Shown: positions 1,654 through 64,000, counted from the first letter of the stretch. The stretch: 64,000 nucleotides of DNA from Candidatus Babeliales bacterium (GCA_050250855.1 JBFWNW010000004.1:96001-160000); one strand, 5' to 3'. The notes: a model not told the origin generated them from the letters alone. Made by a program: numbers and translations.

Positions 1654-1665
1654 AAAGTTCCTATA

Positions 1666-2283: not shown

Positions 2284-2293
2284 TAATTTTCCT

Positions 2294-2929: not shown

Positions 2930-2939
2930 AGAAACTCCT

Positions 2940-9118: not shown

Positions 9119-9268
9119 GATTAATCCTACTTAAAAAATGAATATACTTTGTAGTTTTGTAGTATAGTATAAAGATATGGTGATGCTTCCTCTATCTTTG
9201 TTACTTTAAAACTTTTTTTAAAAAATTAAAATGGTTAATTAGAGATAGTAAAAAAATATGGAAAGTAG

Positions 9269-10081: not shown

Positions 10082-10105
10082 ACCTGAATTGGATACTTAA
10101 ATATC

Positions 10106-10241
10106 CCGTTCGTGGTGAGGAGCAAACTTATTTTAGTTTGCGTCTCGAACCATTTGAACGTCATAAAAAGATCTATGAAGATTTTAATTTTGAGTTCATG
10201 GTTCGAGACATTTTTCTTCGAAAAACCCTCACCACGAACGG
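10106..10241. repeat. REP/MITE-like element (type B) with 15-bp terminal inverted repeats
   Basis: CCGTTCGTGGTGAGG...CCTCACCACGAACGG. Near-identical copy at 13950. Confidence 0.9.
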
Positions 10242-10281
10242 AATATAGAAATTTTAAGAATGCTATTTCGAATTATGCGTT

Positions 10282-10710
10282 TTAAGCTGTTTGCATGTGC
10301 TTTTTCAAAACCAAAATATAAAGGCGTAAGATATTATTTACTTTGCTACAAAGTTCAAATGAACCATCAGTTTTTGTCGTTATTTCAGCTGCATATATCA
10401 TTGTTTGCAATTCAAGTTCATGCCACAAAATATCATCATGCGGTTGCGCACAAACAGCTTTATAGATCGGTAATTGTGGTAGGACTTTTTCAATGAACGT
10501 GGTACAAATATTCCAGCAGTGAGGCTCATAATCAGAAGAAAGAACGAGTTCAGCAGCTTTAGTTGTCCACATACAAGTTTTGGCATCATAAGAGGCCATT
10601 TTTTTTGCATAGGTAAGAATGTCTTTTTGTGCTTCTTTCCAGGCAGGAATAGAGGCTGTTAGAGTAGTTAGAGTTGTACTCAAACCAAGGATAAGTGCTA
10701 GTTTTTTCAT
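10282..10710 (-). CDS. Exported hypothetical protein
   Basis: AAGGA RBS, MKK signal peptide, own promoter. Confidence 0.75.
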   Translation of the reverse strand: MKKLALILGLSTTLTTLTASIPAWKEAQKDILTYAKKMASYDAKTCMWTTKAAELVLSSDYEPHCWNICTTFIEKVLPQLPIYKAVCAQPHDDILWHELELQTMIYAAEITTKTDGSFELCSKVNNILRLYILVLKKHMQTA

Positions 10711-10734
10711 AATAATCCTTCCATATTTTCTTAC

Positions 10735-10763
10735 AGTATAGACTGGTACGCTTTTTTTTGCAA
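10735..10763 (-). promoter_or_regulatory. Sigma70 promoter for 10282..10710
   Basis: TTGCAA-17 nt-TATACT on the minus strand. Confidence 0.55.
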
Positions 10764-10850
10764 AAGCCCCCCGGTAACCCTTGAGATTCTTGAGATATGA
10801 AAATGGTTTGTGCGAAAATCAAGCTGAGGATTTATCCATTTAATGTATTG

Positions 10851-11000
10851 CCGTCCGAATGCTTCGACAAGCTCAGCACGAACGGAGTGAGGGTTGAGCG
10901 CAGCGCTTACTCCTGAGTTCGACCGAAGGGTCAGCACGAACGGCTTAATTTAAATATTTTTCCTATTCCGTTCGCCCTGAGCCTGTCGAAGGGTGCGAAC
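10851..11000. repeat. REP-like composite element (type A, long form)
   Basis: Units at 10851-10885 (-), a mini unit plus a half unit at about 10911-10943, and 10968-11000 (+). Colinear with 59575..59736. Confidence 0.9.
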
Positions 11001-11047
11001 ACAAAAATATTTTGCATAATAATGTAGGAAACAGAGGAGCGTTTTTT

Positions 11048-11725
11048 ATGATCAAACAAAGAATTTATTTTTACTATGTGCTGGTCAAAGGTTTACTGGT
11101 AATGGCGTTTCAGCTTATCTATGGGGTTTGGAAAGTTTCTCGTTTGCCAGCGCCCATAGTTACTATTTTTGGAGGAGCGCGCTTAAAGCAAGATGATCCT
11201 ATAGCAAGGCACGCACATGAATTGAGTCATCGTTTGGCGCGTGCAGAGATTTCAGTAATCTCTGGTGGTGGTCCTGGCATTATGCAAGCAGTCAATTGTG
11301 GCGTACGCCATGAAGAAAAACATGTTAAAGCTCGTACGCTGGGCATTACTGTTAAAGGATTATCAAAAACAGAACCGGTGAACCCTTGTGCGCAAGATTT
11401 TATTGTGACCGATCAATTTGCTGTACGTAAATGGTTGATGATTAATTTTTCTGTGGCATTTATTGTATTTCCTGGAGGCTTTGGAACAGTAGATGAATTT
11501 GCTGAAGTTATAACACTTATGCAGACCAAAAAGCTACCAGGAGTTCCGGTTATTTTGGTTGGTGCGCAATATTGGGATCTCTTAATCCGTTGGCTTAAAG
11601 AATCTGCTTTGCCAAAAGGTCTTGTTTCCCAAAAAGATCTTGATCTTATATATGTAACGGATGATCTTGAGGATATAGTGTGTAAGGTAAAGGAGCAGTG
11701 TGCGTTATGTACACCATGCGCATAA
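11048..11725 (+). CDS. LOG family nucleotide monophosphate phosphoribohydrolase (TIGR00730-like)
   Basis: GGGPGIM, RK and PGGFGTVDE. ATG 11048 follows GAGGAG. Confidence 0.9.
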   Translation: MIKQRIYFYYVLVKGLLVMAFQLIYGVWKVSRLPAPIVTIFGGARLKQDDPIARHAHELSHRLARAEISVISGGGPGIMQAVNCGVRHEEKHVKARTLGITVKGLSKTEPVNPCAQDFIVTDQFAVRKWLMINFSVAFIVFPGGFGTVDEFAEVITLMQTKKLPGVPVILVGAQYWDLLIRWLKESALPKGLVSQKDLDLIYVTDDLEDIVCKVKEQCALCTPCA

Positions 11726-11735
11726 AGGAGATTTT

Positions 11736-12377
11736 ATGAAACATTCTTTTTTTAAAGATGCACTTTCATACGTGATGCATTATCCCTATTACGTATATGG
11801 TTTGTGGCAGATAAAATCTTTGCAAAAACCGCTGGTAACACTTTTTGGTGGCAAGCGGGCGCAAGACGATGCTGTTTATTGCAAGCAAGCAGCAGCAGTT
11901 GCACAAGCACTCGCTGAAAAATCTATTTCTGTGTTAACCGGTGGTGGTCCAGGGATTATGCAAGCAGCATTGTGTGGGGCTCTTAAAGCTGAAAAAAAAC
12001 ATAGTGCTCTTGGCATAGGAGTATATAACGTTGATGAATATTTTGAGCCGATCTGTTCTTATAAAACAATTTATATGCCAAATTTTGCTATGCGAAAAGC
12101 ATTATTGATTGACTATTCTCAAGGCTTTGTTTGTTTTCCTGGTGGCATAGGAACAGTAGATGAACTATTTGAAGTACTCAATTTAATAAAAACAAAAAAT
12201 CTTGCAAAAGTTCCCGTTATTTTATTTGGTAAAGATTACTGGGTTAATATTATTGGTTGGATGAACCATGCTTTTCAAGAAGGTTTTATTGGCTCAGAGC
12301 ACAGAGATATTTTGATGATAACTGATGATATTGATCATGTAGTTTCATTGCTTGTATCGCATGCCAAGAAGCTTTAA
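11736..12377 (+). CDS. LOG family protein, tandem paralog
   Basis: TGGGPGIM, RK and PGGIGTVDE. ATG 11736 follows AAGGAG. Confidence 0.9.
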   Translation: MKHSFFKDALSYVMHYPYYVYGLWQIKSLQKPLVTLFGGKRAQDDAVYCKQAAAVAQALAEKSISVLTGGGPGIMQAALCGALKAEKKHSALGIGVYNVDEYFEPICSYKTIYMPNFAMRKALLIDYSQGFVCFPGGIGTVDELFEVLNLIKTKNLAKVPVILFGKDYWVNIIGWMNHAFQEGFIGSEHRDILMITDDIDHVVSLLVSHAKKL

Positions 12378-13906: not shown

Positions 13907-13949
13907 TTTTACGTGAAAATTAATCAATTGATTGAGAAGTATTTAAATT

Positions 13950-14082
13950 CCGTTCGTGGTGAGGAGCAAACTTATTTTAGTTTGCGTCTCGAACCATACG
14001 GAATCCTAAAAAAGTAAAATTTTTAATTTTGAGTTCGAATGCTTCGAGACGTTTTTCTTCGAAAAACCCTCAGCACGAACGG
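13950..14082. repeat. REP/MITE-like element (type B), second copy
   Basis: CCGTTCGTGGTGAGGAGCAAAC...CCCTCAGCACGAACGG. Confidence 0.9.
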
Positions 14083-14136
14083 AATGTAGAATTTTAAGTA
14101 TACTGAGTCGAATTTAGGTTTATTATAAAGGAATTT

Positions 14137-38078: not shown

Positions 38079-38570
38079 GTGATGAAAAGAGTGCGACATA
38101 TACACGGATTTACATTAATTGAGTTAATGATCGTCGTTGCTATAGTTGCATTCCTCTCTATGATCTCAATGCCAAGTTTCATGCGTTTTCTTTCAAAGGC
38201 AAAGCGTGCCGAGGCGTATATGAATCTTGGTTCACTTTCTATAGCTCAAAAAGCTTATCATGCCGAGCATGGCAAATTTACTCCAAATTTAAGTGGCGCA
38301 GAAAGTGTTGGTTGGAAACCAGAAGGTTATTCTGGTGGTGGTTCGGGAGAACGCTTTTATTATACGTATGGTTTTTCTGAAGGCCAAGAAGGCCAACAAC
38401 ATTTTACTGGAAAACTTAATACGCCAGCTTCTGACCTAAAACAAACGCAAGCAAGTAAAGATAAATTTACTGCAGCTGCGGCAGGAGATATTGATGGCGA
38501 TGGTCAACCAGATATTTTAACCGTCAATGAATATAATGATATAAAAATTGTCCAAGACGATTTGGCATGA
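38079..38570 (+). CDS. pilA: Type IV pilin
   Basis: G-FTLIELMIVVAIV prepilin motif, KAKRAEA, C-terminal GDIDGDG. Confidence 0.9.
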   Translation: MMKRVRHIHGFTLIELMIVVAIVAFLSMISMPSFMRFLSKAKRAEAYMNLGSLSIAQKAYHAEHGKFTPNLSGAESVGWKPEGYSGGGSGERFYYTYGFSEGQEGQQHFTGKLNTPASDLKQTQASKDKFTAAAAGDIDGDGQPDILTVNEYNDIKIVQDDLA

Positions 38571-38944
38571 AACTTTTTTTCTTTACCATTCTTTTTTTTT
38601 CTACTCTTTTTTTAAATGTTCTTTTGCAACCCTATATTGTTGCATGGAAAAACGAACAATGGTGGTATGTGCCAGCTTCATTATTTTTATCATACAAAAA
38701 TATAGCAGCAGATTATTATTGGCTGAAATTATTATCTGATAGTACTACGCGCCATTTTTATACTGATATAGATTATATTACTTCATTGGATGAATCGTTT
38801 GATATAGTGTATCGTTACGGTTTTATTGTATTGTATACGTATAAAAATAGAAAAGATTTAGCATTCCGGATTCTAAAAAAATATAAAAAAAATGGTGTGC
38901 AAAAAAGAACTTTTTTTTATATGAATGAGGCTAGATGCCCATAA
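38567..38944 (+). CDS. Pilin-associated hypothetical protein, possibly eroded
   Basis: ATGA overlap with pilA. N-terminal TM and AADYYWL...ITSLD-SF motif. Confidence 0.55.
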   Translation: MKLFFFTILFFSTLFLNVLLQPYIVAWKNEQWWYVPASLFLSYKNIAADYYWLKLLSDSTTRHFYTDIDYITSLDESFDIVYRYGFIVLYTYKNRKDLAFRILKKYKKNGVQKRTFFYMNEARCP

Positions 38945-39695
38945 GTATAAGATTGAGGATCTCTTTTTGAAAGAGAACATAGAGCATTGCTCCACTAGCA
39001 AGAAATGGGCCAAAAGGGATTTTTATACCAACTAAAGATCTTTTGTAAGCAAGCATAATAAAAATACCACCACATGTTCCCATGAGCGAAGCAATAAGCA
39101 ATGTGGTCCACCAACCAATAAATCCTATGCATGATCCTATGAAAGCAAGAAGTTCAACGTCACCTTGTCCCATGCCAACTTTTTTAGTTATCAAACAATA
39201 TGCGTACCCTATAGCAAAAAGAAAAAGATAAGCAGTTAAGGAGCCGATAATACTTTCTTGCCATGAAAGGGGAAGTATGCCAAAAAAACTACTAAGATAA
39301 CCAAAAGGAATAAGCCATAAGGTGACAAAGCGAGAAAGCAGTAATGTTTCTAAATCTGTGCGTATGGAAATAATAAGAGCAGAGAAAAATATAAAATAAC
39401 CAGGCCAGTAACAAAGAGGCGTAGTAAGCGTAAGGCCATAAAAACTGAGAGCGGTAATAGCTTCAATAAAAGGATAAAGCAACGATATAGGCTGTTTGCA
39501 AGAACGACAAGAACCTTTAAGAAGCAACCAAGAAAGAAGAGGAATATTATCGTACCAAGCAATAATAGTTTTACAGGAGGGACATTGAGATCGAGGAGAA
39601 AAAAATGGAATAGAAGTTGAAATTAAACGAAATGCGATAACATTTAAGAATGATCCCCAACATAAAAAAAGTGGTATTAAAAGGACCGTAGTCAA
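38931..39695 (-). CDS. pilD: Prepilin peptidase (A24)
   Basis: GSFLNV, RSQCPSC, DNIP, CRSC, MGQGD and IPFGPFL. Confidence 0.95.
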   Translation of the reverse strand: MTTVLLIPLFLCWGSFLNVIAFRLISTSIPFFSPRSQCPSCKTIIAWYDNIPLLSWLLLKGSCRSCKQPISLLYPFIEAITALSFYGLTLTTPLCYWPGYFIFFSALIISIRTDLETLLLSRFVTLWLIPFGYLSSFFGILPLSWQESIIGSLTAYLFLFAIGYAYCLITKKVGMGQGDVELLAFIGSCIGFIGWWTTLLIASLMGTCGGIFIMLAYKRSLVGIKIPFGPFLASGAMLYVLFQKEILNLILMGI

Positions 39696-48667: not shown

Positions 48668-49378
48668 ATGGAAATAGAAACACAAAAAGGTTCCTGCCAT
48701 ACTCATGATCATGAACAAGCCTCTGTACTTTCTGAGCTTATCTGTCATTTGCCATACGCTATTTTTTCAGTTGCTTTTGGACTTATTATATTAAGTTTTC
48801 TTGCTTTTGGTGGTATGGCAGATGGTTCAAAGGCTCATGCAAAGGGCTTGCATATGTTGTTCCATTCTTTTCATTTTCTTCATATTATTTTTGCAACAAC
48901 AGGTTGTTTAGTAACTTTTTCTCGTTTTTCTTCTAACATTGTTAAAGGGCTTGTTGTTTCTTTATTTACTGCTCTTTTTTTCTGTACCCTTTCAGACGTT
49001 GTTCTACCGTATTTAACGGGAACTATGTTTGGCGTTCATATGCACTTTCATATTTGTTTATGGTCTGAATTACATAATATTGTTCCTTTTCTTTCTATTG
49101 GTCTTTTAAACGGTTTTATTCTTAGTAGGCATACAACGGTCAATAGAGCTGCCTATTCAGTAGCCTCTCATTTTGGGCATATTTTAACCAGTTCATTGGC
49201 ATCACTTTTTTATTTGGTGAGTGAAGGTTTTGCTCAGTGGAATGTCTATATGGGTATGGTTTTTGTACTCTTAATCATTGCCGTTGTTGTTCCTTGCACC
49301 TTTGCAGATGTTATTGTGCCTGTTTTATTTGCACAGATGGGAAATAAGAATGAAAAGCATCAAGCTTCAAAACATTAA
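48668..49378 (+). CDS. His-rich integral membrane protein
   Basis: CHTHDH N-terminus, HSFHFLH and HMHFH motifs, about 6-7 TM segments. Confidence 0.75.
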   Translation: MEIETQKGSCHTHDHEQASVLSELICHLPYAIFSVAFGLIILSFLAFGGMADGSKAHAKGLHMLFHSFHFLHIIFATTGCLVTFSRFSSNIVKGLVVSLFTALFFCTLSDVVLPYLTGTMFGVHMHFHICLWSELHNIVPFLSIGLLNGFILSRHTTVNRAAYSVASHFGHILTSSLASLFYLVSEGFAQWNVYMGMVFVLLIIAVVVPCTFADVIVPVLFAQMGNKNEKHQASKH

Positions 49379-52085: not shown

Positions 52086-53157
52086 ATGGCATCATTTTTT
52101 TAAAATAGCTATTGTTGTTTTTTGGATAACTATTTTTATATTTTTTCTCATGATTCCTTATCTAGGAATAGTTCTTGGTACGGATGCAAGAACTATTAAT
52201 GTAATGACATGGGGGGCAACCTTAGATCCAGTTATCATAGAAAAATTTGAAAAAGAATCAGGGATCAAAGTTAATTTTAACTATATTGAATCGAATGAAG
52301 AACTTTTTGTAAAAATGTATACAACTGGTGGAAAAGATTATGATCTTGTAATGCCGTCAGATTATATGATGCAAAAATTAATTGACGCACAGTTAATAAA
52401 AAAAATTGATAAATCTAAAATAGATTTTTGGCATAGAATTCAGCCACGCTTTTTACAGCAGTATTTTGATGGCACTAATAGTTATTCAATACCATTTTTC
52501 TGGGCTCTTTATGGGTTGGGGATTAATAAAGATATGTTTACTCAAGTGCCACCTGCTTCATGGAGTTTGCTGTTTAGTTATCCAATTCCTGGAAGAGTTG
52601 CTATGCTTGCTCAGGCGCGCGAGGCGATATCGCTTGCTGCTCAATATTTATTTAAATCAATTGAAAATATTACTCCTGAAAAAGTTAAGCAGATTGAACA
52701 TCTTCTTGTTGAGCAAAAAAGTAGGGTAGAAGTATACGTTGATGCCGATATTCGAACGAGTTATTTACTTTTATCAGAAACATGTCCTGTTGTTGTAGGG
52801 GCAACTCCTTATTTTCTATGTTTTATGAAAGAAAATCCATCAATTGATTTTTTAATTCCTCAAGAAGGAACATTTATTTTAATTGATAGCTTTGCACTTT
52901 CTTGCGCTACACAAAAAGATGATTTGATTTATCAATTTTTGAATTATCTGTATAAACCTGAAGTGCTTTTTCATCATTTTGAAAATCTTCCTGTTATTCC
53001 CGTAACCAAAGAACTTGAAGAATTTTTAAATCAAGATAAGATTCCTCAAAGCATGAGAACATTGCTGCTTGATCCATCAATCAAAGCTACTTTTTTTAAA
53101 AATGTTATACCAGAAGATGAGTTGAATGCCCTTTGGATGGCAGTAAAAGCAGCATAA
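52075..53157 (+). CDS. potD: Spermidine/putrescine-binding protein
   Basis: FEKESGIKV, SNEE, YDLVMPSDY, YSIPFFW and PQEG. Confidence 0.9.
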   Translation: MFFRWHHFFKIAIVVFWITIFIFFLMIPYLGIVLGTDARTINVMTWGATLDPVIIEKFEKESGIKVNFNYIESNEELFVKMYTTGGKDYDLVMPSDYMMQKLIDAQLIKKIDKSKIDFWHRIQPRFLQQYFDGTNSYSIPFFWALYGLGINKDMFTQVPPASWSLLFSYPIPGRVAMLAQAREAISLAAQYLFKSIENITPEKVKQIEHLLVEQKSRVEVYVDADIRTSYLLLSETCPVVVGATPYFLCFMKENPSIDFLIPQEGTFILIDSFALSCATQKDDLIYQFLNYLYKPEVLFHHFENLPVIPVTKELEEFLNQDKIPQSMRTLLLDPSIKATFFKNVIPEDELNALWMAVKAA

Positions 53158-53263
53158 TATTTAATAAGCTTGACTTTATTTATTAAAAAAAATAGGAGAT
53201 ATATAAAAGAGGTTATTTTTTTGTAATGAAAAATGTTTAATCTAAAAAGAGGAACGAGGTAGT

Positions 53264-56200
53264 ATGAAGAAGCATATTTCTTTCCTGCGTCAGTTTGTAC
53301 TTGTATTTTTTTTCTTAAGCTTAGTACAAACAGTCTATGGCGTTGGTGGTACTGTATATTGGCATAATTTAAGCGATGGTCCTGGCGGAACAAGCCCTGG
53401 GGTTACGCAAAATGTAATTGACTGTGACATTGATGTCATAGGGGTAAACGCCTTAGTTGACGGTATCCATGTTGAAGCACGAACTCAAGATATTGTAATT
53501 ACTATTACTAATGGAGATGCCGTTATTACTGGTTCTGGCAACCGTGCCGATTTAGTACCGACCAATTCTGCTCGTCTTTATTTATTTGTTAATCCCGGCT
53601 TTTCAATAACATTTCAATTAACCAGTGATTTATTATTCCGCGGTACAACCGATCATGGGCATACGCTTGATTTAATGGTAACTGTTTCCGGTGGTGGTCG
53701 TGTTGAATTTTGCATTGAGGGTGATAACAACGTTGCTTTCTCTGCACAAGGCGGTAGTGGTGGTACTAAAGTATTTGTTGCCATGCAGGATAACGTAACG
53801 CCAAAATTACGCTTTAAGAGATTAAGCCCAACTATGGGTAATATAAATAACAATATTGAAGTTCAAGTAGGCATGAATTCATGCATCAGCTACATTGCAG
53901 AAACGCCGGTTTCAACCGGTATGGCAAACGAGACTGGCTGCATAGCATTTAATGGTACCAATCAAGGAACTGGTTGTACTATTTTACGCATTCAAGATTG
54001 TTCATGTTTTGTAATTCGTGGTAATTGGCTTGAAGGTGCAACATTAAATGATGATTTTTTATTAGATGATATTAATCTTGCAGTACCAGCCGGTTTTCAA
54101 GCACAATTTGTTGTAGAAAATTCAGCACCCGATACGTTGCATTCAAGTCTTCAAGTAATTAACCAAAATAGCAAATGTCCGAATCTCTTAATAGATCCTT
54201 TCTGTGATAATGCATTTACCGGAACGCAGTATGGTTTTATTCTTGGTGCCAATGCAATCTTGCAAGTAAATGATTTATCATATTTAGATTATATTGGAGC
54301 TTCTACCAATATGCTGCCTGTTGTTACAACACCGCTTTCTAATTTGCAGCCTGATATTGTTGATCTTATAGAATGCGGTCAAGCAACAGGACCTCAAGAT
54401 TTTATTAAAGAAAGAAACTGTTCAGCATTTTTTGTTGATGGTGATCCAAATCCTAACGCTCAGCAAGCACAAATTAGCTTATTAGGAACTTCTGCAATTT
54501 ATTTCCGTTCAGCTGTTGATTGTGAAGGAAATTTTGTACCAAGTTTTACTATAGATCCAGGCAAAGAAACACCAGGTGCTGGTAATATTGTATTTGATGT
54601 AGAAGGTTCTTTATTAGTACAAGGGCAGCAAGGGCAGAACAGTGCGTTGAATGTACTTTCATTACAAGTAACAAAAACAGGATGCCCGTTATTTGTTGAA
54701 TTAACTGATAACCCAATTTTCCCGCAACGTACGTTTGCTCGTGATGCTGATGGGGAATATCTACAATATAATAAAGCTGCATTCTTGATTAATAACTATA
54801 TGCATATTGAATACACGTCATTATTGCATACGGATGCAATTCATGCCGTTTATCAAAATAATAATCTTGGTATCTCATCATTAAATACAGAGCCTACTTA
54901 TATTGGTGGTGAAACATGGAAGCTATGTCTTCCTGTTGGTCGCCCTCGTCCTGCTATTTCATTTAATGATTCAATTTTCCGTGTGCAAACTGGTGTTGGT
55001 ATAACAGGTGTTGATCTATGTGTACCAAATGATCCGAATAATGGTAACACCAGTATTTTCCGTTTCTATAATAATGGGCGCGCTATCGATAATGCATATG
55101 GCCGCGTAATGATTCTGGGTACTAATATTGGTGCATATTCTGCATGCGGACGTTTAATAGATAACGCAGCTCACTTAGATATTTTCCAAAAAACAGCCCA
55201 GCAAACAATAACAGATCAAGCATTGCTTCTTGAAGTTGGCTTTAATAATACCTGCATTACGCAAGGAATTGTTGGTGATATTTCTGGCCAATGTGCCGTT
55301 CATGAAATTTATTTAAATAATGCGACAAACATTTCAATTGGTACTGATGGTGATGTCGGTACTGCTACCACGGGTCAACAGTTTGATTTAATAACAACGC
55401 CATCGCTTTGTGTAGCGGGAGAATTTTTCTCATTCAATTCTGCTGGTGGAGCATGGGGTCTTCCTGGTGCCAGTGGTACAACGGGAGAAGGCGGTATCTT
55501 TGTAGACAGAAACGGCACCATTAAGAGCCCTTGTCGTGCAAGTTTTTCTGCCATGGTAACGCGTAGTAGAAATGGTATTATTGATTTACCGAAAAACCAA
55601 GTATTCTTCACTAATCGCGTTGGTATTACGGTGTGGAAGCCAAACTTAACCGCTTCAAGTCAACGAGTTTTAGTGCCTTCTGGTGTATGTCTTTCTGATT
55701 TTACTATGGATTGGGGAGCGCTTGAAAAAGATTATACAACAACGAATAGTTTTGTTCCGTATGAATTAAAATGTACGCCGAATCCATGCGATTGTCCTGC
55801 AGTAACTGCTGCAAACCTTCGTGCATTGCCAATTATAGAAGGGGAAGTAAATCAATTCCAAGTCAGAAGAACGCGTATTGGCGATCAAATGCATTTACAA
55901 GTTACTAATGGCGGTATTATTGATGAATTAACATTCCTTATCGGTTGTAATCCAGCAGAAGCTGCCGTTGGCTTTTTAGTAGTAGAAGGTGAAGCGCGTG
56001 TTGGTATTGGTAGCTCACAGCGCAATAAGGATTCAAACTGTGCAAACGTAGTACTTGGTGTTAATGGCCTTAGTATTTGTGCAAATGGTAATGCTGTTAT
56101 TGAATTAAATGAAGATATTATTATTAATAACGTGTGCCATATTTTAGCCGGTACATCATTTGGGGTAACAAGTACCGATACGTTAACGATATTCTCTGAA

Positions 56201-57643
56201 GATACTAAAGAGTTACGCGTTAAATCAACCGGACTTCTTGATCTTTCACAATTTAATACGCCATCAAAAGTACTCCAATTTGCGGGGAAAGCAAAACTAG
56301 TATTTGAGCCTGGTTCAAAATTAGTACTTGGTGGTGGTGTTCTTATCTTTACTGATGAAACACAGTTAGCCTTTGAACGCGTATTAAATGAAGACCTCCT
56401 TCTTGGCAGTGAGCCAGTAGATCTTGATCCAATTCGCGTTAAAATTGTTGGTCGCGGTAATATTTTGATGGAAGAAGATTCTGTCTGCCAAATTCTTGAA
56501 AATCAATTTGTTGGGATAGAAACTGATGTAATTTGTGATAATATTACGTCTATTACCTGGCGCCTTTCTGAACAAGCAACGGTTGAAATTGGCAGTCAAG
56601 GTCGTCCTGGTGGAGCATTGCAAGTTGGTAATACGTTGTGTCAAAACGGTGCTTCAATTGATCTTACTATTATATTAGATGGTCTTGGTACGTTGTGGGA
56701 AATTAATCGTCAAGGATTTATGGGTCTTGGCGTTGGCGTTGCCAATAAAGTAAGCCAAGTACCAAACCAATGGTTGGTAAACTGTCTTGAAAACGTATTT
56801 ACCGTTTCCATTGATATTAGATCAGGAACGTTTAATCATAGCCAAATTTTGACCGGTGATGATATTCGTGCTTCATTACTTGCAGTTGGCCCAGCACAAC
56901 AATATACGTTGGCATTTAATCCTATTTCTGCTGTAATTCTTGGTGGTGGTAATTTGGTGCAAATTACTAATTGTACCAATGCTGTTTGTAATCAACGATT
57001 AAAAGAACTTGATGCACAAAAAGTGCAGCCAAATATACAAGATGCAGTGCTCAAAGCACAAGAGCTTATTGCTCAAGCTGAAGCTATGATGGAACAAGCA
57101 AAAGCAATGATGCAAAAAGCAACGATAACACGCGGCGTATCAAAAATAAAAAATCTTAAAGAAGCGCGCCGTATTAGAAAAACAAGCAAGAGTATGAAAG
57201 AAGAAGCATATAGAATAACAAGAAACGTTATTATTCCTTCTATTCAACCTGTTGTGCAGGATGTAGCAGGCGTTATAGATCCTAACTTACAGGTAAGTAT
57301 TCTTTCAGGAAGAATGTTGCTCATAGATACGGCAAAAGGTGCGCAGCCTTCAAGCGTGAGCTCTCAAACGTATTTTGATTATTTGAGTACGTTGCCATTT
57401 GATTCTCAAAACTCTCCACGAGCAAATATATTTAGACAAGAATTTACGTTATCTACCGTAGGTTATATTGTAGGTTCAACTATTCGCCGTGAATTAATTC
57501 AAACAATTCGTGGTGTTGGTGGCTTTAACGTAGCAGATCATGATCATTCATTACGTATTGGTGCTATTGGTATAAACATTGATAACGCACCACCGCGAGC
57601 ACTTTCATCACGTATTGAATTGCGTGGCACTGAAGGACTATAA
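53264..57643 (+). CDS. Large Cys-rich exported beta-rich (solenoid-like) protein
   Basis: Signal peptide, G/N/T/I/V-rich short strands, about 34 Cys by hand count. No terminal Phe. Confidence 0.85.
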   Translation: MKKHISFLRQFVLVFFFLSLVQTVYGVGGTVYWHNLSDGPGGTSPGVTQNVIDCDIDVIGVNALVDGIHVEARTQDIVITITNGDAVITGSGNRADLVPTNSARLYLFVNPGFSITFQLTSDLLFRGTTDHGHTLDLMVTVSGGGRVEFCIEGDNNVAFSAQGGSGGTKVFVAMQDNVTPKLRFKRLSPTMGNINNNIEVQVGMNSCISYIAETPVSTGMANETGCIAFNGTNQGTGCTILRIQDCSCFVIRGNWLEGATLNDDFLLDDINLAVPAGFQAQFVVENSAPDTLHSSLQVINQNSKCPNLLIDPFCDNAFTGTQYGFILGANAILQVNDLSYLDYIGASTNMLPVVTTPLSNLQPDIVDLIECGQATGPQDFIKERNCSAFFVDGDPNPNAQQAQISLLGTSAIYFRSAVDCEGNFVPSFTIDPGKETPGAGNIVFDVEGSLLVQGQQGQNSALNVLSLQVTKTGCPLFVELTDNPIFPQRTFARDADGEYLQYNKAAFLINNYMHIEYTSLLHTDAIHAVYQNNNLGISSLNTEPTYIGGETWKLCLPVGRPRPAISFNDSIFRVQTGVGITGVDLCVPNDPNNGNTSIFRFYNNGRAIDNAYGRVMILGTNIGAYSACGRLIDNAAHLDIFQKTAQQTITDQALLLEVGFNNTCITQGIVGDISGQCAVHEIYLNNATNISIGTDGDVGTATTGQQFDLITTPSLCVAGEFFSFNSAGGAWGLPGASGTTGEGGIFVDRNGTIKSPCRASFSAMVTRSRNGIIDLPKNQVFFTNRVGITVWKPNLTASSQRVLVPSGVCLSDFTMDWGALEKDYTTTNSFVPYELKCTPNPCDCPAVTAANLRALPIIEGEVNQFQVRRTRIGDQMHLQVTNGGIIDELTFLIGCNPAEAAVGFLVVEGEARVGIGSSQRNKDSNCANVVLGVNGLSICANGNAVIELNEDIIINNVCHILAGTSFGVTSTDTLTIFSEDTKELRVKSTGLLDLSQFNTPSKVLQFAGKAKLVFEPGSKLVLGGGVLIFTDETQLAFERVLNEDLLLGSEPVDLDPIRVKIVGRGNILMEEDSVCQILENQFVGIETDVICDNITSITWRLSEQATVEIGSQGRPGGALQVGNTLCQNGASIDLTIILDGLGTLWEINRQGFMGLGVGVANKVSQVPNQWLVNCLENVFTVSIDIRSGTFNHSQILTGDDIRASLLAVGPAQQYTLAFNPISAVILGGGNLVQITNCTNAVCNQRLKELDAQKVQPNIQDAVLKAQELIAQAEAMMEQAKAMMQKATITRGVSKIKNLKEARRIRKTSKSMKEEAYRITRNVIIPSIQPVVQDVAGVIDPNLQVSILSGRMLLIDTAKGAQPSSVSSQTYFDYLSTLPFDSQNSPRANIFRQEFTLSTVGYIVGSTIRRELIQTIRGVGGFNVADHDHSLRIGAIGINIDNAPPRALSSRIELRGTEGL

Positions 57644-57654
57644 AGAGGGATTAT

Positions 57655-57679
57655 AGGGCTGGCCAAAAACCAGCCCTTT
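57655..57679 (+). promoter_or_regulatory. Intercistronic hairpin (weak terminator or mRNA stabiliser)
   Basis: AGGGCTGG-ccaaaaa-CCAGCCCT with only a short T run. Confidence 0.5.
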
Positions 57680-57725
57680 ATAAAAAAAGGTTAAGCTATG
57701 ACCATTTTATTATTAAAGGAGAGGA

Positions 57726-59477
57726 ATGAATAAAAATTTTAAGCACCAGATACTATTACTACTCTTGGTAGGTAGTTCTGGCATCGGTGCTCGTGAACTC
57801 AGAACGCCATGGGGCTTGGAGCGAGGACCGTTTCATTATCCCGTACCATGCAGGTCGACAGATAAAGAGCAATGTTGGAACGTTGATATTTGGGGTGCAG
57901 GGTTGTATCGCCAATCAAATAAAGCGTTCATTGATAAAATGAGTTTTAAAACAGATCCTTCATTGGCGGGTATAATTTTTGGTCAAAATAGTTTTGTAGG
58001 GCTTGATGCATTTGCTGCAGGGGTTACCAGTCCGGTAAATCCTTTTTTAGCATTTGCTCAAATTGCACCGCGTATTAATTATCGTGAAAGTTCTGCTTAC
58101 TTTGGCTGCTACATAGAACGTCAATTACCATGGGGTTGTGATTGTGCATGGCGCGGCGGTATGCGTATAACCTTACCGTTCCGTGCTATTGATATTAATT
58201 TAGAAAATTGCTGTGATTTAGAAGAAACATTGGCAGATGTATGTCATCGTCAAAATGAACGTGTTGATGGCGCAGCTATTGGTGCAAATCCTACTATTCA
58301 AACGGTAGATGATTGTTTTGCTTATCGCCTTGATTTTTTAAGTTCTTTATTTTTACAACAAGCTGGTGTACCGCCATTTGATCCTTTTGTTGAATATCGT
58401 AGACCGATAGCAAGTACTTTTGATGTTGCTATGGATGCAGCTGTTATTAGCGACAGAAATGATAACCCAATTAACTTTATTAGAAGAACTGATGGTACGT
58501 TGCCAGAGGGTCCGTATTGTGCACCTTTTAATGTTGTAGATGCTGCTCAATTTATTAATGCTGATGGTTCTGGGGGCGTTAATAATGAACGTTTGCGTGG
58601 ATTTAATCAAAATATTGATTATACACCACTTTCAAATGATAAAGCAGCGCAGCGCCAATTGTGGGCAGTTCCTACAGTCGGACAAGTTGCGGGAACACTT
58701 CAAGAATTTACTATAGCACAAAATATTGGAACAGCGATTGAGCAACTTGTAAGAAATCTTCCTAATGCTGGTGCTATTGGTTTTTTTAATGAACATGGTG
58801 TTGATTTTAATACGCAGCACAATGTTGGCTTGGGGCAAATGGAGTTTGAATTTTATGCAAACCGTGATTGGTGTAACTGGTTTTTTGAAGGTATTGTCGG
58901 TTTTCATGCACCAACGGGTTTGAAAGTTAAAGATCCGGGCAAAATTTATAAAATTTTCAATACTGGCAACAACCGCCACTGGGTTGCAAAATTTGGCGGC
59001 ATTGCAACCTATGATCCTAACATTTGGTGCCATATAAAAGCTGAAGCATTTTATTCATATGTAGCTCCTGCTACAGAGCGCGTTGCTGCGCCATTTACAG
59101 GTGCAACGGTCAAAAATATCGGACCTGCTGTCAAAGCCTCTATTTCTTGGAATCAATTTGTTGCTCGCTTGGATACTATTTGGTTGGTGCCATGTAATCC
59201 TCGCGTTGGCTGGTTGCTTGGCTATGAAGCATATTTTAAAACAAAAGATAATGTGAAATTAAAACAAACAACCGCAACAGACTTTCTTGGCAATACGCAC
59301 ACTCTTGATCCAGCAGTGTTAGAAGAACGTACTAAAGTATATAGTAGCAAGGCTCGGGTAGAAATGTTCCATCAAGGAAGTTTCTGGGAGCTTTTTGCAG
59401 GGTGGACTCATGTATTTGCTGGACGTAATGCGCCAAAAGAAACTGATTGGCATATTGGTCTGATAGCATTCTTTTAA
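57726..59477 (+). CDS. Cys-rich putative outer-membrane beta-barrel protein (family B)
   Basis: Signal peptide, GLGQME, APTG and TGNNRHW motifs, terminal Phe (IGLIAFF). About 13 Cys. Confidence 0.75.
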   Translation: MNKNFKHQILLLLLVGSSGIGARELRTPWGLERGPFHYPVPCRSTDKEQCWNVDIWGAGLYRQSNKAFIDKMSFKTDPSLAGIIFGQNSFVGLDAFAAGVTSPVNPFLAFAQIAPRINYRESSAYFGCYIERQLPWGCDCAWRGGMRITLPFRAIDINLENCCDLEETLADVCHRQNERVDGAAIGANPTIQTVDDCFAYRLDFLSSLFLQQAGVPPFDPFVEYRRPIASTFDVAMDAAVISDRNDNPINFIRRTDGTLPEGPYCAPFNVVDAAQFINADGSGGVNNERLRGFNQNIDYTPLSNDKAAQRQLWAVPTVGQVAGTLQEFTIAQNIGTAIEQLVRNLPNAGAIGFFNEHGVDFNTQHNVGLGQMEFEFYANRDWCNWFFEGIVGFHAPTGLKVKDPGKIYKIFNTGNNRHWVAKFGGIATYDPNIWCHIKAEAFYSYVAPATERVAAPFTGATVKNIGPAVKASISWNQFVARLDTIWLVPCNPRVGWLLGYEAYFKTKDNVKLKQTTATDFLGNTHTLDPAVLEERTKVYSSKARVEMFHQGSFWELFAGWTHVFAGRNAPKETDWHIGLIAFF

Positions 59478-59498
59478 TTTTTTTCTTGTCAATAAGGC

Positions 59499-59532
59499 AG
59501 AGGCTGTGGGTTTCCATGGCCTCTCTTTTTTT
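59499..59532 (+). terminator. Intrinsic terminator
   Basis: AGAGGCTGTGG-gttt-CCATGGCCTCT followed by CTTTTTTT. Confidence 0.85.
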
Positions 59533-59574
59533 ATAAAAATTTTTTTTGTGCTATGTTAGATAGTAGATTTTGAT

Positions 59575-59736
59575 CGTTCGTATGCTTCGACAAGCTCAGC
59601 ACGAACGGAGTGAGTGTTGAGCGCAGCGTTTACTCCTGAGTTGGCTCGAAGGGTCAGCACGAACGGCTTTAATATAAACATTTTTTTATTCCATTCGCCC
59701 TGACCCTGAGCTTGTCGAAGGGGCGAAGGGTGCGAA
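59575..59736. repeat. REP-like composite element (type A, long form) with a nested unit
   Basis: Colinear with 10851..11000. The right arm contains an extra CCCTGAGCTTGTCGAAGGG core. Confidence 0.9.
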
Positions 59737-59757
59737 AGAATAAACCAAAGAAAAATT

Positions 59758-61677
59758 ATGGAAGAACATTCAAATAAATTTTACGTTACCACACCCATTT
59801 ATTATGGGACAGCAAAGCCTCACTTAGGTTCCTTATATTCAACCTTGCTTGCAGATGTTGCTACGCGTTGGCACAAAATGCTTGGCAACAGAACCTACTT
59901 TTTAACAGGTACTGATGAACATGGTCAAAAAATTTTACAAGCTGCTCAAAAAGCTGGTATGGAGCCACAAGCGTTTGTTGATAGTTTTGTGCATGATTAT
60001 AAAACTACTTGGCAGCATTATGAATTTGTGTACGATCAATTTATTCGTACCACAGATCCAGAGCATAAAAAGGCAGTACAGGAATGGGTAAAAACTGCAC
60101 AGAAAAAAGGTGATATTTATAAATCTGTTTACAGCGGCTGGTACTGTACGCCGTGTGAAACGTATGTAACAGAAACGCAAGCAGGCCCTCATGATAAAGC
60201 GCCGCTTTGTGCTTCTTGTAATCGTGAAACGAGCTATGTTTCTGAAGAGTCATACTTTTTTAAATTGTCTGCTTATCAAGAAAAACTTTTGCAATTTTAT
60301 AAAGAAAATCCAAACTTTATTGTTCCTAAAGAGCGATTAAATGAAGTTATTCGTTTTGTAGAAGCTGGGCTCAAAGATTTAAGTATTTCACGTACTACGA
60401 TTAGTTGGGGCGTTCCTTTTCCAGAAGATACGAGCCACGTTGTATATGTTTGGGTTGATGCGTTGCTTAATTATATTTCTGCCATAGGCTACGGACAGCA
60501 TGGCATGGAAGAAAACTTTAAAAAATGGTGGCCGGCCGATTTACAAATTTTAGGAAAAGATATTATTCGTTTCCATGCCGTTTTTTGGCCTGCATTTTTA
60601 ATGGCAGCTGATTTGCCGTTACCAAAAAAATTATTGGTACACGGTTGGATAAAAGTTGATAAGCAAAAAATGTCTAAATCTTTAGGCAATGTTGTAGATC
60701 CTATGGCGTTGTACGAAGAATATGGTGCCGATGCTGTTCGCTTTTATTTAGTTCGTCATATTGCCATTACTCATGATAGTGAATTTAGTATTGCCGATTT
60801 GCAAAATTGCATTACCAGTGATTTAGCAAATGATTTAGGTAATTTACTTAATCGTATGTTAACACTTGCTTTAAAGCATGACCTTTCACAGGTTCCTAAA
60901 CATACCGTGTGGAATGAAATGGGCGTTGATCTGCGTAACGCGTGTTGGGATGTCATTGAAGAATATAAAAATTATATGAACGACGGTATGTTTCATATGG
61001 CCGTTGCTCGTTTATGGAAGTTTATTAATCAGGTAAATGCGTATTTTCATGCCAATGAGCCGTGGAAATTGGCAAAAAATGCTCCAGTTCAATTTACTGA
61101 AGTAATTTCTGCTACCTGCCATAGTTTGTATACTATTGGTTTATTATTGTGGCCAGTAATGCCAAAAAAGATGGAAGAATTGTTACGTAATTTGGGTGTT
61201 GATTTTCATGTGAAGGGTAATATGGTTGAACTACTTGCCTCTAACAGGTGGGATCATCAATTTTATTTACAAGTAACTGAAACACTTTTTGCAAAACCAG
61301 AAAAGGTTGAAAAGATGGAACCTACAGAAAAAGTTATTACGCCAGAACAAGCATATATTACTATTGATCAGTTAACCCCTATTGAGCTACGCGTGGGAAC
61401 TATTGAAGCGTGTGATCATGTAGAAAAATCAGATAAACTCTATAAATTAAGCGTAAATTTTGGTGCATATGGCGTGCGACAGATTCTTTCTGGCGTAAAA
61501 CAAGCATTTAAGCAGGAAGAATTAGTCGGCAAGCAAGCAATTTTTGTTTACAATTTGCAACCTCGTAAAATGGTTGGGCTTGAATCTCAGGGTATGATGT
61601 TAATGGCAAAAGATGAAAAAGGCTTAAGGCTTATTGTTCCAGAACATGCAGTGGAAAATGGCACCAAGTTAAGTTAA
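59758..61677 (+). CDS. metG: Methionine-tRNA ligase with C-terminal tRNA-binding domain
   Basis: TTPIYY-HLGS, GTDEHG, Zn knuckle CTPC/CASC, KMSKS, and C-terminal OB domain (NLQPRKM-G-ESQGM). Confidence 0.98.
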   Translation: MEEHSNKFYVTTPIYYGTAKPHLGSLYSTLLADVATRWHKMLGNRTYFLTGTDEHGQKILQAAQKAGMEPQAFVDSFVHDYKTTWQHYEFVYDQFIRTTDPEHKKAVQEWVKTAQKKGDIYKSVYSGWYCTPCETYVTETQAGPHDKAPLCASCNRETSYVSEESYFFKLSAYQEKLLQFYKENPNFIVPKERLNEVIRFVEAGLKDLSISRTTISWGVPFPEDTSHVVYVWVDALLNYISAIGYGQHGMEENFKKWWPADLQILGKDIIRFHAVFWPAFLMAADLPLPKKLLVHGWIKVDKQKMSKSLGNVVDPMALYEEYGADAVRFYLVRHIAITHDSEFSIADLQNCITSDLANDLGNLLNRMLTLALKHDLSQVPKHTVWNEMGVDLRNACWDVIEEYKNYMNDGMFHMAVARLWKFINQVNAYFHANEPWKLAKNAPVQFTEVISATCHSLYTIGLLLWPVMPKKMEELLRNLGVDFHVKGNMVELLASNRWDHQFYLQVTETLFAKPEKVEKMEPTEKVITPEQAYITIDQLTPIELRVGTIEACDHVEKSDKLYKLSVNFGAYGVRQILSGVKQAFKQEELVGKQAIFVYNLQPRKMVGLESQGMMLMAKDEKGLRLIVPEHAVENGTKLS

Positions 61678-61747: not shown

Positions 61748-64000
61748 ATGAAGCAACAATCCTGCCTTTTGTATGGTATTTTTTTATTTTCTTTTTTTGT
61801 TAGTCAGCCATTTTTTATTCACGCGAGTGAAAGAAATCGTGAATATCGAAATGCTATTTCTGAAGAATTTTCCTATCCGCACGTTTTAGAGCAGATAAAA
61901 GAACTTATTGATCTTCATGTACACGTATCAAAAAATATAGATCAATTGTCCGCTGAAGATCTTTCTATTTTTATGGGGACTTTAGAGGATCTGCTTTCTG
62001 TTATTACCTCGATAAAAAGGAGTACTACTAATCCTGATTATGTTGAGCCATTGAGTTTGTATGAAGAACATTGCCTAGCAGTTTTAAAAAAGGCTCAGTC
62101 AGTATCTTTTCATATGGAAAGTAAAGCGCCGCGAATTGATGCTCCTGTAATTACAGCAAATGATGCTGTTGTGGGTAAAGACGGCTGTGACCTTACGCAA
62201 GTTTTGGCCATATTAGGGGCTATTAAGAAGCGAATTACTAATCTTTCTATTCTTATATGTGAAAAATTTGAATTTACCTGGTCGATATTAGAGAAAATAG
62301 ATATTGACGTAAATGGGATATTTACTGCATTAGAAGATATTCAAATTAGTGTAAGTATTGATTTATCGGGAATTTTTACGGTTTTAGAATTTGATTTTAA
62401 TAATTTACAAACAATAATTTGTGAGAAGTTTGAATATACCTGGTCAGCTCTGCAGAAAATAGATATTGATGTTAACGGAATATTCACGGCGATAGACAAT
62501 ATTGATATTTGTCCAACAGTAGATTTGACTGGCATATTTACAGCCCTTGAATTTGATTTTAATAATCTACAAACAATAATTTGTGCGAAGTTTGAAGATA
62601 CCTGGTCGATCTTGCAGAAAATAGATATTGATGTAAATGGTATATTTACGGCTATAGATAATATTGATATTTGTCCAACAGTAGATCTTTCTGGAATATT
62701 CACCGCGCTTGAATTTGGTTTTCATGATACGCAAACAATTATCTGTGCGAAATTCGAAGATACCTGGTCAATACTACAAAAAATAGATATTGACATTAAT
62801 GGTATTTTTACCGCTATAGAGAATATCAATGTAAATGTAAGTGCGACAGTAGATTTATCAGGAATATTCACCGCGCTTGAATTTGGTTTTCATGATACGC
62901 AGACAATAATTTGCGCTAAATTCGAAGATACCTGGACGATCCTGCAAAAGATAGATATTGATGTTAATGGTATATTTACGGCTATAGAGAATATTGATAT
63001 TTGTCCAACAGTAGATCTTTCTGGAATATTCACTGCACTCGAATTTGGCTTCTTTAATACGCAAACAATTATTTGTGAGAAGTTTGAGGATACCTGGACG
63101 ATCCTGCAAAAGATAGATATTGATGTTAATGGTATATTTACCGCTATAGAGAATATCAATGTAAATGTAAGTGCGACAGTAGATTTATCAGGAATATTCA
63201 CCGCGCTTGAATTTGGCTTCTATGACACGCAAACAATAATTTGCGAGAAGTTTGAAGATACCTGGTCGATATTGCAGAAAATAGATATTGATGTTAATGG
63301 TATTTTTACCGCTATAGATAATATTGATATTTGTCCAACAGTTGACTTATCAGGAATATTTACAGCACTTGAATTTGGCTTCTATGATACGCAAACAATA
63401 ATCTGTGAGAAGTTTGAAGAAACATGGACAATACTTGGCGAAATTAACGAAAATGTACTAAATTTGTTTGAGTTTACGGCAAATCTAATAGGGACTTTGA
63501 CAGCGGATCTTCTTGATACGCAGACAATAATTTGCGCTAAATTCGAAGATACGTGGACAATATTGCAAAAGATTGATATTGATGTTAACGGCATATTCAC
63601 TGCGATAGATAATATCGAAGTATGTCCGACAGTAGATCTGTCTGGCATATTTACTGCACTCGAATTTGGCTTTTTTGACACGCAAACAATAATTTGCGCC
63701 AAATTCGAAGATACGTGGACGATACTAGAGAAAATTGATGTTGATGTGAACGGTATTTTTACGGTACTGGATAATTTAGTACTTTCAGTAACGATAGGTG
63801 AAATTACCGTATCAGTATCAATAGACTTGTCTGGTGTATTTACTGCATTAGAGTTTGGTTTCCATGATACACAAACAATTATTTGTGAGAAATTTGAAGA
63901 TACCTGGTCAATACTACAAAAAATAGATATTGACATTAATGGTATTTATACAGCAATAGAGAATATCAATGTAAATGCAAGTGCAACGGTAGATCTCTCT
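61748..64000 (+). CDS. Large secreted tandem-repeat protein, at least 751 aa (runs off the right edge; absent from the ORF track)
   Basis: Manual translation from ATG 61748 (upstream AAGGGG): MKQQSCLLYGIFLFSFFVSQPFFIHA-S..., open to the window end. Confidence 0.9.
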   Translation, partial: MKQQSCLLYGIFLFSFFVSQPFFIHASERNREYRNAISEEFSYPHVLEQIKELIDLHVHVSKNIDQLSAEDLSIFMGTLEDLLSVITSIKRSTTNPDYVEPLSLYEEHCLAVLKKAQSVSFHMESKAPRIDAPVITANDAVVGKDGCDLTQVLAILGAIKKRITNLSILICEKFEFTWSILEKIDIDVNGIFTALEDIQISVSIDLSGIFTVLEFDFNNLQTIICEKFEYTWSALQKIDIDVNGIFTAIDNIDICPTVDLTGIFTALEFDFNNLQTIICAKFEDTWSILQKIDIDVNGIFTAIDNIDICPTVDLSGIFTALEFGFHDTQTIICAKFEDTWSILQKIDIDINGIFTAIENINVNVSATVDLSGIFTALEFGFHDTQTIICAKFEDTWTILQKIDIDVNGIFTAIENIDICPTVDLSGIFTALEFGFFNTQTIICEKFEDTWTILQKIDIDVNGIFTAIENINVNVSATVDLSGIFTALEFGFYDTQTIICEKFEDTWSILQKIDIDVNGIFTAIDNIDICPTVDLSGIFTALEFGFYDTQTIICEKFEETWTILGEINENVLNLFEFTANLIGTLTADLLDTQTIICAKFEDTWTILQKIDIDVNGIFTAIDNIEVCPTVDLSGIFTALEFGFFDTQTIICAKFEDTWTILEKIDVDVNGIFTVLDNLVLSVTIGEITVSVSIDLSGVFTALEFGFHDTQTIICEKFEDTWSILQKIDIDINGIYTAIENINVNASATVDLS
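62258..64000 (+). repeat. Coding tandem repeat, units of 162/168 bp with one 129-bp and one 189-bp variant
   Basis: Cys codon anchors at 62258, 62420, 62582, 62744, 62912, 63074, 63242, 63404, 63533, 63695 and 63884. Confidence 0.95.

Follow-up and report, generated by a model that had tools for sequence, protein, structure and literature searches.

In the window analysed here, a stretch of 64,000 nucleotides from a Candidatus Babeliales bacterium (GCA_050250855.1, JBFWNW010000004.1:96001-160000), the open reading frame (ORF) of a 1459-residue protein, P0001 (the giant), is followed after an 82-bp spacer (57644-57725) by that of a 583-residue protein, P0002 (the barrel), predicted to be an outer-membrane beta-barrel. 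Our analyses revealed that the pair is neither a two-partner secretion system nor a classical autotransporter. As the leading explanation we tentatively favour a Dependentiae-specific module for barrel-dependent export or display, in which the C-terminal module of the giant would be the targeting or anchoring element. More tentatively still, the pair may represent an unrecognised class of outer-membrane export or display systems, universal in the Dependentiae, composed of a double-sized barrel with the fold of FapF and the COG4313 channels and of cargo with a portable C-terminal module, the giant perhaps also serving as structural coat or tether for an outer membrane poor in lipopolysaccharide. 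In effect, this would be a "split autotransporter" on a different barrel lineage, with a beta-helix as its core cargo and enzymes, such as an esterase, at satellite loci.

The following parts of the two genes enter the argument:

53264..57643, + strand: giant gene P0001, 1459 aa (ORF and translation)
53264..53341, + strand: putative Sec signal peptide of the giant, aa 1-26, MKKHISFLRQFVLVFFFLSLVQTVYG (by-eye reading)
53342..56380, + strand: predicted beta-helix body, aa 27-1039 (the model covers aa 260 onward)
56429..56965, + strand: beta part of the predicted C-terminal module, aa 1056-1234 (model and hhalign)
57029..57232, + strand: predicted two-helix hairpin insertion, aa 1256-1323 (model residues 997-1029 and 1033-1064)
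57269..57616, + strand: predicted C-terminal alpha/beta domain, aa 1336-1451 (model and hidden Markov model, HMM)
57726..59477, + strand: barrel gene P0002, 583 aa (ORF)
58911..58985, + strand: PTG-motif loop of the barrel, aa 396-420 (conservation in 182 family sequences)

Predicted folds of the barrel and the giant

P0002 begins with a signal-peptide-like segment and ends in Phe (...LIAFF); the signal peptides of both proteins were judged by eye from the sequence. Its AlphaFold model, built on an alignment of 44 sequences (predicted local distance difference test, pLDDT, 89.8; predicted TM-score, pTM, 0.84), points to an outer-membrane beta-barrel. In a Foldseek search of the PDB, the top match was FapF (E 5.9e-9; target-normalised TM-score, TMt, 0.63-0.71) and the next was the COG4313 channel Pput2725 (4rl8; TMt 0.76-0.79), the E values of these matches spanning 6e-9 to 9e-7. 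The lower ranks held the EspP autotransporter barrel (TMt 0.50), FadL (TMt ~0.3) and general porins with poor TM-scores. The ESM Atlas model gave an independent pointer, to a cluster with PF13557 in 22% of its members. Since sequence-profile tests gave no link to FapF or COG4313, P0002 is treated as sharing their predicted fold class and is not filed as a member of either family.

At the sequence level, P0002 has no Pfam match (E<=0.01) and no NCBIfam match, and a search of the PDB chains with its sequence returned nothing. The generic OMP_b-brl model was matched by one of the 44 barrel-family members. POTRA and Omp85 domains were found neither in P0002 (Pfam) nor in the 44 members at E<=0.1, while the bamA product in the same window, as the positive control, scored 8.3e-24 for POTRA and 1.3e-22 for Omp85. 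P0002 has relatives in 45 other clusters at 90% identity, and an exhaustive profile search of 1.84 billion proteins returned 597 family representatives at E<=1e-3; no fusion of a barrel with a passenger occurs among the best 150 of these 597, all of which are 373-712 aa long. The C-terminal residue is aromatic in 167 of the 176 full-length family members. In the PTG loop, P396 is kept in 178/182 sequences, T397 in 172/182 and G or A at position 398 in 163/182, and the GNNxHxE block that follows shows similar counts among the same 182 (G414 in 180, N415 in 165, N416 in 161, H418 in 181 and E420 in 167). A motif of three residues, such as PT(G/A), is weak evidence of homology. DSSP assigned ~15 strand segments and large inserts to the model; the C-terminal ~8 strands show the alternating pattern typical of membrane strands, and both faces are polar in strands 173-181 and 191-201. 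Matches of the barrel-family profile to designed 'Pizza' propellers in the PDB came through a 35-residue stretch repeated six times and were dismissed as an artefact.

The giant has a putative signal peptide without a lipobox Cys, a composition of 9.6% G, 7.4% N and 5.6% D, and the C-terminal sequence ...RGTEGL. Its family comprises 56 clusters at 90% identity, P0001 included, some of them named Candidatus Babeliales. Neither Pfam nor NCBIfam matched P0001, and Pfam assigned a family to 0/33 giant-family members apart from one chance hit. A search of the PDB chains gave coiled-coil matches only, at E 0.3-1, which were taken as noise, and every score in the Atlas search was 0.80 or lower, so that these matches serve as leads only. 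The AlphaFold model of aa 260-1459 (pLDDT 90.4, pTM 0.77) displays a beta architecture of short strands. The leading Foldseek matches are parallel beta-helices, for the most part autotransporter passengers (Ag43, Hap, SepA, Hbp and pertactin) and otherwise PL6 lyases and tailspikes, all of them weak (best E 7e-3, rising to ~1; TM 0.1-0.25). The body is accordingly modelled, and here read, as a probable parallel beta-helix resembling autotransporter passengers.

In the same model, a short two-helix linker (residues ~1040-1058) divides the body from what appears to be a discrete C-terminal module of ~300 residues, which has a beta-rich part after the linker (1059-1234 in the model) and is broken in P0001 by a clade-specific helical hairpin of two 33-residue helices. 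This insertion measures 83-169 aa in 19/54 giant-family members and 9-24 aa in 35/54. The faint Foldseek matches of the giant to MexA/AcrA-type adaptors (probability 0.2-0.35) presumably arise from the hairpin. A profile of the module built from 28 sequences had no PDB match at E<=1; its NCBIfam matches, each from a single member and at chance level, were set aside.

Pairing of barrel and module across loci

Related loci were gathered by a peptide-pattern scan with one genome per species, and 29 loci (L001-L029) carried the pattern. All 29 lie in Dependentiae-type genomes, the nearest being a Candidatus Babeliales genome, and a few records are labelled otherwise. Four of these (L018, L020, L022 and L027) are titled 'uncultured Pseudomonadota bacterium' yet show the full Dependentiae-type gene order or the pair; their affiliation is probably not the one given in the title.

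HMMs of the barrel and the module found adjacent ORFs in 29/29 loci and in the window. With the HMM of the beta part alone, the matching ORF again adjoined the barrel in every locus and in the window, and the HMM of the alpha/beta domain, in which R1409 is invariant, matched in the window and in 27/29 loci, L027 and L028 giving no match. The module-bearing proteins are 756-1802 aa long. In 27 loci they lie upstream of the barrel on the same strand, and the spacer between giant and barrel is 14-156 nt in 26 loci. L002 differs: a second barrel copy stands between the giant and the barrel, giving tandem barrel genes at 7542-9332 and 9992-11830. These two barrels and that of L003 form a clade with 100/100 support, in which the order is unresolved; the tandem suggests a fairly recent duplication.

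The pairing takes another form at L005 and L013, where a barrel paralogue is followed, not preceded, by a protein of 756-788 aa with a PF00756 esterase as its N-terminal half (E 1e-16 and 6.5e-18). The C-terminal 355 residues of one such fusion, P0239, align to residues 1056-1443 of the giant with the hairpin skipped (hhalign probability 100, E 8e-42), the hairpin insertion being absent from the esterase fusions. A third fusion of PF00756 with the module, P0245, was found in the protein collection. The surroundings of L005 and L013 are also different, with genes for UvrB, a WD40 protein and an AAA-ATPase/PD-(D/E)XK protein, and their barrels form a long-branch clade in the tree (100/100). Elsewhere, the pot genes that precede the pair in the window are absent at L012, L019, L021, L027 and L028. 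The pairing gains weight because it is kept through rearrangement and passenger swap (L005, L013) and in changed contexts.

Just upstream of the barrel, L005 (9566-9976) and L013 (9553-9954) each hold an ORF fragment of 134-137 aa that matches HMM positions 889-983 of the giant body. It looks like the relic of a rearranged giant gene.

An earlier note, made from the window's sequence before these searches, was borne out in part. The two ORFs of 1459 and 583 aa, the 82-bp gap, a stem-loop within it and a terminator downstream are all present as it described. Its picture of the giant as a short-strand, beta-solenoid-like protein with no terminal Phe is borne out by the G/N/D-rich composition, the beta-rich model, the ...EGL end and the nearest, though weak, structural matches, which are autotransporter passengers. 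It had also taken the second protein for a barrel without POTRA or Omp85 domains, hence no TpsB, and for a member of a different barrel family. Structure prediction returned a confident beta-barrel, the domains are missing from P0002 and its 44 relatives, and the fold lies nearest to COG4313, which the note had proposed testing, and to FapF. Adjacency, whose conservation in relatives it had proposed testing, holds in all 29 Dependentiae loci, and the pair stays outside the known two-partner secretion family, with no POTRA, Omp85 or TPS-domain match. The literature searched contained no description of the pair in Dependentiae, TM6 or Babelota.

Relation to known systems and alternative explanations

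FapF is described as a plugged 12-stranded barrel through which FapC leaves in unfolded form; among PDB entries Pput2725 is its closest relative, and the PTG motif is common to both (PMC5557850). Here, FapF is the top fold match to the barrel (PDB 5o65, 5o67), the PTG motif lies at a loop in both, and in both systems a dedicated barrel gene stands beside the gene of a beta-rich substrate exported by Sec, a putative one here. On the other hand, the solved FapF chains have ~280-300 residues compared to 583 aa here and there is no sequence-level match. FapF carries a long N-terminal coiled coil in the periplasm, whereas the P0002 model has no long N-terminal helix except the signal peptide. The fap operon, with its amyloid subunits and the FapD protease, is unlike the surroundings here, potABCD and metG, and the FapF substrate consists of amyloid subunits, while the substrate here would be a 1459-aa beta-helix. 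The COG4313 proteins are described as 12-stranded barrels whose lumen contains an N-terminal segment (PMC4493636). Pput2725, as a COG4313/Phenol_MetA_deg protein, has the highest target-side TM-score with our barrel and the PTG motif in common with it. However, PF13557 is not matched here, our barrel is twice as long, and the COG4313 importers have no partner protein.

The arrangement also recalls two systems in which cargo is marked at its C-terminus. For type 11 secretion (Slam/DUF560), one preprint describes a barrel gene beside varied cargo sharing a conserved C-terminal domain (10.1101/2024.09.26.615229). The logic is alike, with a single barrel and adjacent cargo of varied architecture bearing a C-terminal module, but DUF560 is matched neither in P0002 nor in the 44 family members, the cargo here is not a lipoprotein and the phylum is another one. 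The type 11 cargo domain is described there as an 8-stranded barrel, whereas the module here is predicted to combine a beta part with an alpha/beta domain. In type 9 secretion (T9SS), PorV is a FadL-like barrel. It is described as working together with cargo marked by a C-terminal signal domain (PMC5562754). We found no match to T9SS families (Pfam, NCBIfam) and saw no other T9SS genes in the window. An AsmA/TamB-like lipid bridge was considered and rejected: no AsmA or DUF490 profile matched, and the giant's leading Foldseek matches, weak as they are, are all closed parallel beta-helices, which bears on the question of an open beta-taco fold. The pair fits neither the autotransporters, nor the FapF system, nor type 11 secretion.

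Several observations weigh against the export or display reading. The housekeeping neighbours are almost as syntenic as the pair itself (potA 22/29, metG 21/29), and adjacency alone is for that reason weak evidence. Distances among barrels correlate with those of the giant body at r 0.87 and of the module at r 0.69, as compared to 0.59 for MetG and 0.64 for PotA, in the 20/30 sources that have all five proteins; nine loci were left out for want of MetG, PotA or a full-length giant. However, the control pair, barrel and PotA given MetG, reached a permutation p of 0.0005, equal to that of barrel and module, and the barrel-giant correlation is only suggestive because the control is also significant. 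At L012 (196-5086), seven tandem genes for proteins of 215-249 aa with signal-peptide-like starts, homologous to the N-terminal ~190 residues of the giant, lie directly upstream of the giant gene and are without the C-terminal module. The Foldseek search with the giant model gave 0 matches at E<=1e-3. As for the barrel, its link to FapF and COG4313 appears to lie in the predicted fold and a short motif: PF13557 was found in 0/44 family members at E<=0.1, and the family profile did not match the FapF chains of the PDB. The query-normalised TM-score is ~0.35, and therefore roughly half of P0002 is extra. The protein is about twice the size of FapF and the COG4313 channels, and about half of it seems to have no counterpart in them. 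Judging from the strand order in the DSSP string, counted back from the periplasmic C-terminus, a 110-residue insert (aa 202-311) is probably turned towards the periplasm or the lumen. COG4313 channels are thought to import hydrophobic molecules (PMC4493636). The prepilin peptidase and pilin-like genes of the window indicate that another export route may exist. Binding of the giant to the barrel, its translocation and its surface location are what we infer rather than what we observed. A complex prediction for barrel aa 23-583 with giant aa 1040-1459 scored 0.00 twice and was counted neither way.

Alternatively, the two proteins would have independent functions, the barrel as an uptake channel for hydrophobic molecules or host nutrients and the giant as an adhesin or coat exported by another route, for example a type II-like one, with a gene order frozen in these reduced genomes keeping them together. 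We consider this unlikely, though it is the most serious of the alternatives. The best fold matches other than FapF are indeed importers (COG4313 and FadL), the order bamA-orf-potABCD-giant-barrel-metG is conserved for unrelated genes too, a gene-end hairpin stands between the two genes in most loci, and the pilin-type genes just mentioned would offer the other route. Lipid import could be useful, as TM6 genomes are reported to be without lipid synthesis pathways (PMC4776705). However, frozen gene order does not readily account for a pairing that is found in 29/29 loci and that survives relocation, reversed order and the replacement of the beta-helix by an esterase (L005, L013), and the known importers are half as large as the barrel. 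The need for uptake channels has been tied to the lipopolysaccharide (LPS) barrier (PMC4493636), and the Babeliales envelope is described as degenerate, with most LPS genes missing (PMC4776705); we infer that this need would be smaller here. A less probable but still serious alternative keeps the giant inside, either periplasmic or on the inner face of the outer membrane, docked on those parts of the barrel that face the periplasm and stiffening or tethering a membrane without the known tethers. Such an envelope scaffold would agree with the universal occurrence of the pair, its synteny with bamA and housekeeping genes and the single copy usual among the loci seen. It would also agree with strand parity in the DSSP string, by which the 110-residue insert of the barrel and its first ~95 residues probably lie on the periplasmic side or in the lumen. 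The faint adaptor matches of the hairpin region point the same way. One preprint reports that, of the four outer-membrane tethering systems known, ten Dependentiae genomes contain no homologue (10.1101/2021.05.31.446380), and dark-staining periplasmic material is described in Chromulinavorax (PMC6561590). Yet no peptidoglycan-binding domain was detected (Pfam/NCBIfam), the helical hairpin is absent in 35/54 giant-family members, an esterase with the same module makes better sense as an enzyme that is displayed or secreted, and the nearest folds of the giant body are extracellular passengers.

A divergent type V system, either two-partner secretion or an autotransporter that a recent gene break has split in two, appears very improbable. 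It has in its favour the passenger-like beta-helical fold predicted for the giant, as in the type Va proteins Ag43, Hap, pertactin and EspP, and some likeness of the barrel to the EspP translocator; enzyme passengers occur in both, the esterase being the case here. Two-partner secretion likewise sets the gene of a large beta-helix (TpsA) next to that of an outer-membrane barrel (TpsB). However, no POTRA, Omp85, TPS-domain or autotransporter-barrel Pfam match was obtained in either protein or its family, the TPS (haemagglutination activity) domain giving no match in P0001 or the 33 family members examined. The barrel's fold is nearest to 12-stranded barrels, not to the 16-stranded Omp85 type, and autotransporter barrels fit it less well than FapF and COG4313. 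The portable element that is conserved lies at the C-terminus here and at the N-terminus in two-partner secretion. Moreover, a type Va passenger ends in a helix threaded through its fused barrel, whereas the giant is predicted to end in a folded module of its own. The split is ancient and universal, with passenger and barrel as separate genes in the window and in 29/29 loci and no fusion in the best 150 representatives.

Under the barrel-dependent export or display that we favour, the giant would cross the inner membrane by Sec, and its C-terminal module would be recognised by the cognate barrel. The unfolded chain might then pass the outer membrane through the barrel or with its help, in a manner comparable to that of FapC through FapF or of autotransporter passengers through their 12-stranded barrels, and folding of the beta-helix outside could provide the driving force. 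The giant would remain attached through its module and serve these parasites as a core surface coat or as an adhesin. The Dependentiae occur widely and live as obligate parasites of protists. If this reading holds, several consequences would follow. A FapF/COG4313-like lineage would join the few barrels that move large proteins across the outer membrane, giving wider roles to a fold of which one exporter and several importers have been characterised so far. The module could serve as a cargo tag by which surface proteins and secreted enzymes of an uncultured phylum are recognised, and a likely main host-contact protein of these parasites would have been identified.

Gene ends, cysteines and the surrounding window

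Two structured elements accompany the genes of the pair:

57655..57677, + strand: intercistronic stem-loop, 8-bp G+C stem and 7-nt loop
59499..59534, + strand: terminator-like hairpin (59499-59524) and T-run after the barrel gene (terminator scan, folding)

The 82-bp spacer as a whole folds at -19.5 kcal/mol, but 16/200 dinucleotide shuffles fold as well (z -1.56), and the terminator scan made no call at the stem-loop. The hairpin after the barrel gene was called by the scan, with z -2.65 and 1/200 shuffles as stable. A perfect G+C stem follows the giant stop codon in the window and in 19 of the 26 loci examined, with unrelated stem sequences, and the stem is missing from four loci whose spacers measure 14-20 nt. 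In the window and L001-L029, among same-strand spacers of 40-160 nt, strong stems (perfect, at least 8 bp, -15 kcal/mol or lower) were found in 21/23 giant-to-barrel spacers versus 37/66 others (Fisher p 0.002). For the most part, the intercistronic hairpin thus reflects a gene-end feature that is general in these genomes, with some enrichment at giant-to-barrel spacers, and gene-end stem-loops appear to be a genome-wide habit of these AT-rich Dependentiae. Against this background, the idea of the hairpin as a special regulatory device is weakened. Most simply, the stem-loop would be a leaky gene-end terminator or a stabiliser; it is compatible with partial termination or 3'-end protection, either of which would favour the giant transcript over that of the barrel.

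The description of the pair as Cys-rich stands only in part. The giant has 34 Cys (2.33%) and the barrel 13 (2.23%), above the 1.48% pooled over the 49 other window ORFs, yet they rank only 9th and 10th of 51, and the positions are mostly unconserved, with 7-50 Cys per protein in the giant family and 4-23 in the barrel family.

On the 5' side of the pair lie bamA, a 236-aa ORF and then potABCD, and on the 3' side metG; the other content of the window is housekeeping genes typical of a reduced genome. The place after bamA often holds skp in other bacteria. Here, the 236-aa ORF (48668-49378, + strand) directly follows bamA, has no Pfam or NCBIfam match and keeps its position in 23/29 loci.

Between the barrel terminator and metG, a G+C-rich, strongly self-pairing intergenic element was observed at 59575-59708, and the segment 59555-59757 folds at -71.9 kcal/mol (z -4.4). 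The element is a copy of a dispersed repeat, with 87% identity over 134 nt to 10852-10985 and further copies at 963-1006, 10103-10254 and 13947-14095. Its 13-nt core occurs 12 times versus 0.46 expected, with no Rfam match. An Rfam scan of 53000-59900 gave a single sub-threshold match, to the L20 leader (E 0.65), which was dismissed.

Three further observations concern other parts of the window. On the + strand, an ORF running off the window (61748-64000) encodes more than 750 aa with 2.5% Cys and at least 9 tandem repeats of 162-168 nt; its Pfam matches are at noise level only, and relatives occur near the module in L001, L004 and L010. The - strand holds four tandem paralogues of 198-211 aa (1057-3572), which begin like signal-peptide proteins or lipoproteins; Pfam gave no match to them, and they are not related to the giant. 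Finally, a pilin-like gene, whose product has an N-terminal methylation motif, and the gene of a type IV prepilin peptidase lie at 38079-39695; both point to a type IV pilus or a type II-like apparatus in the genome.

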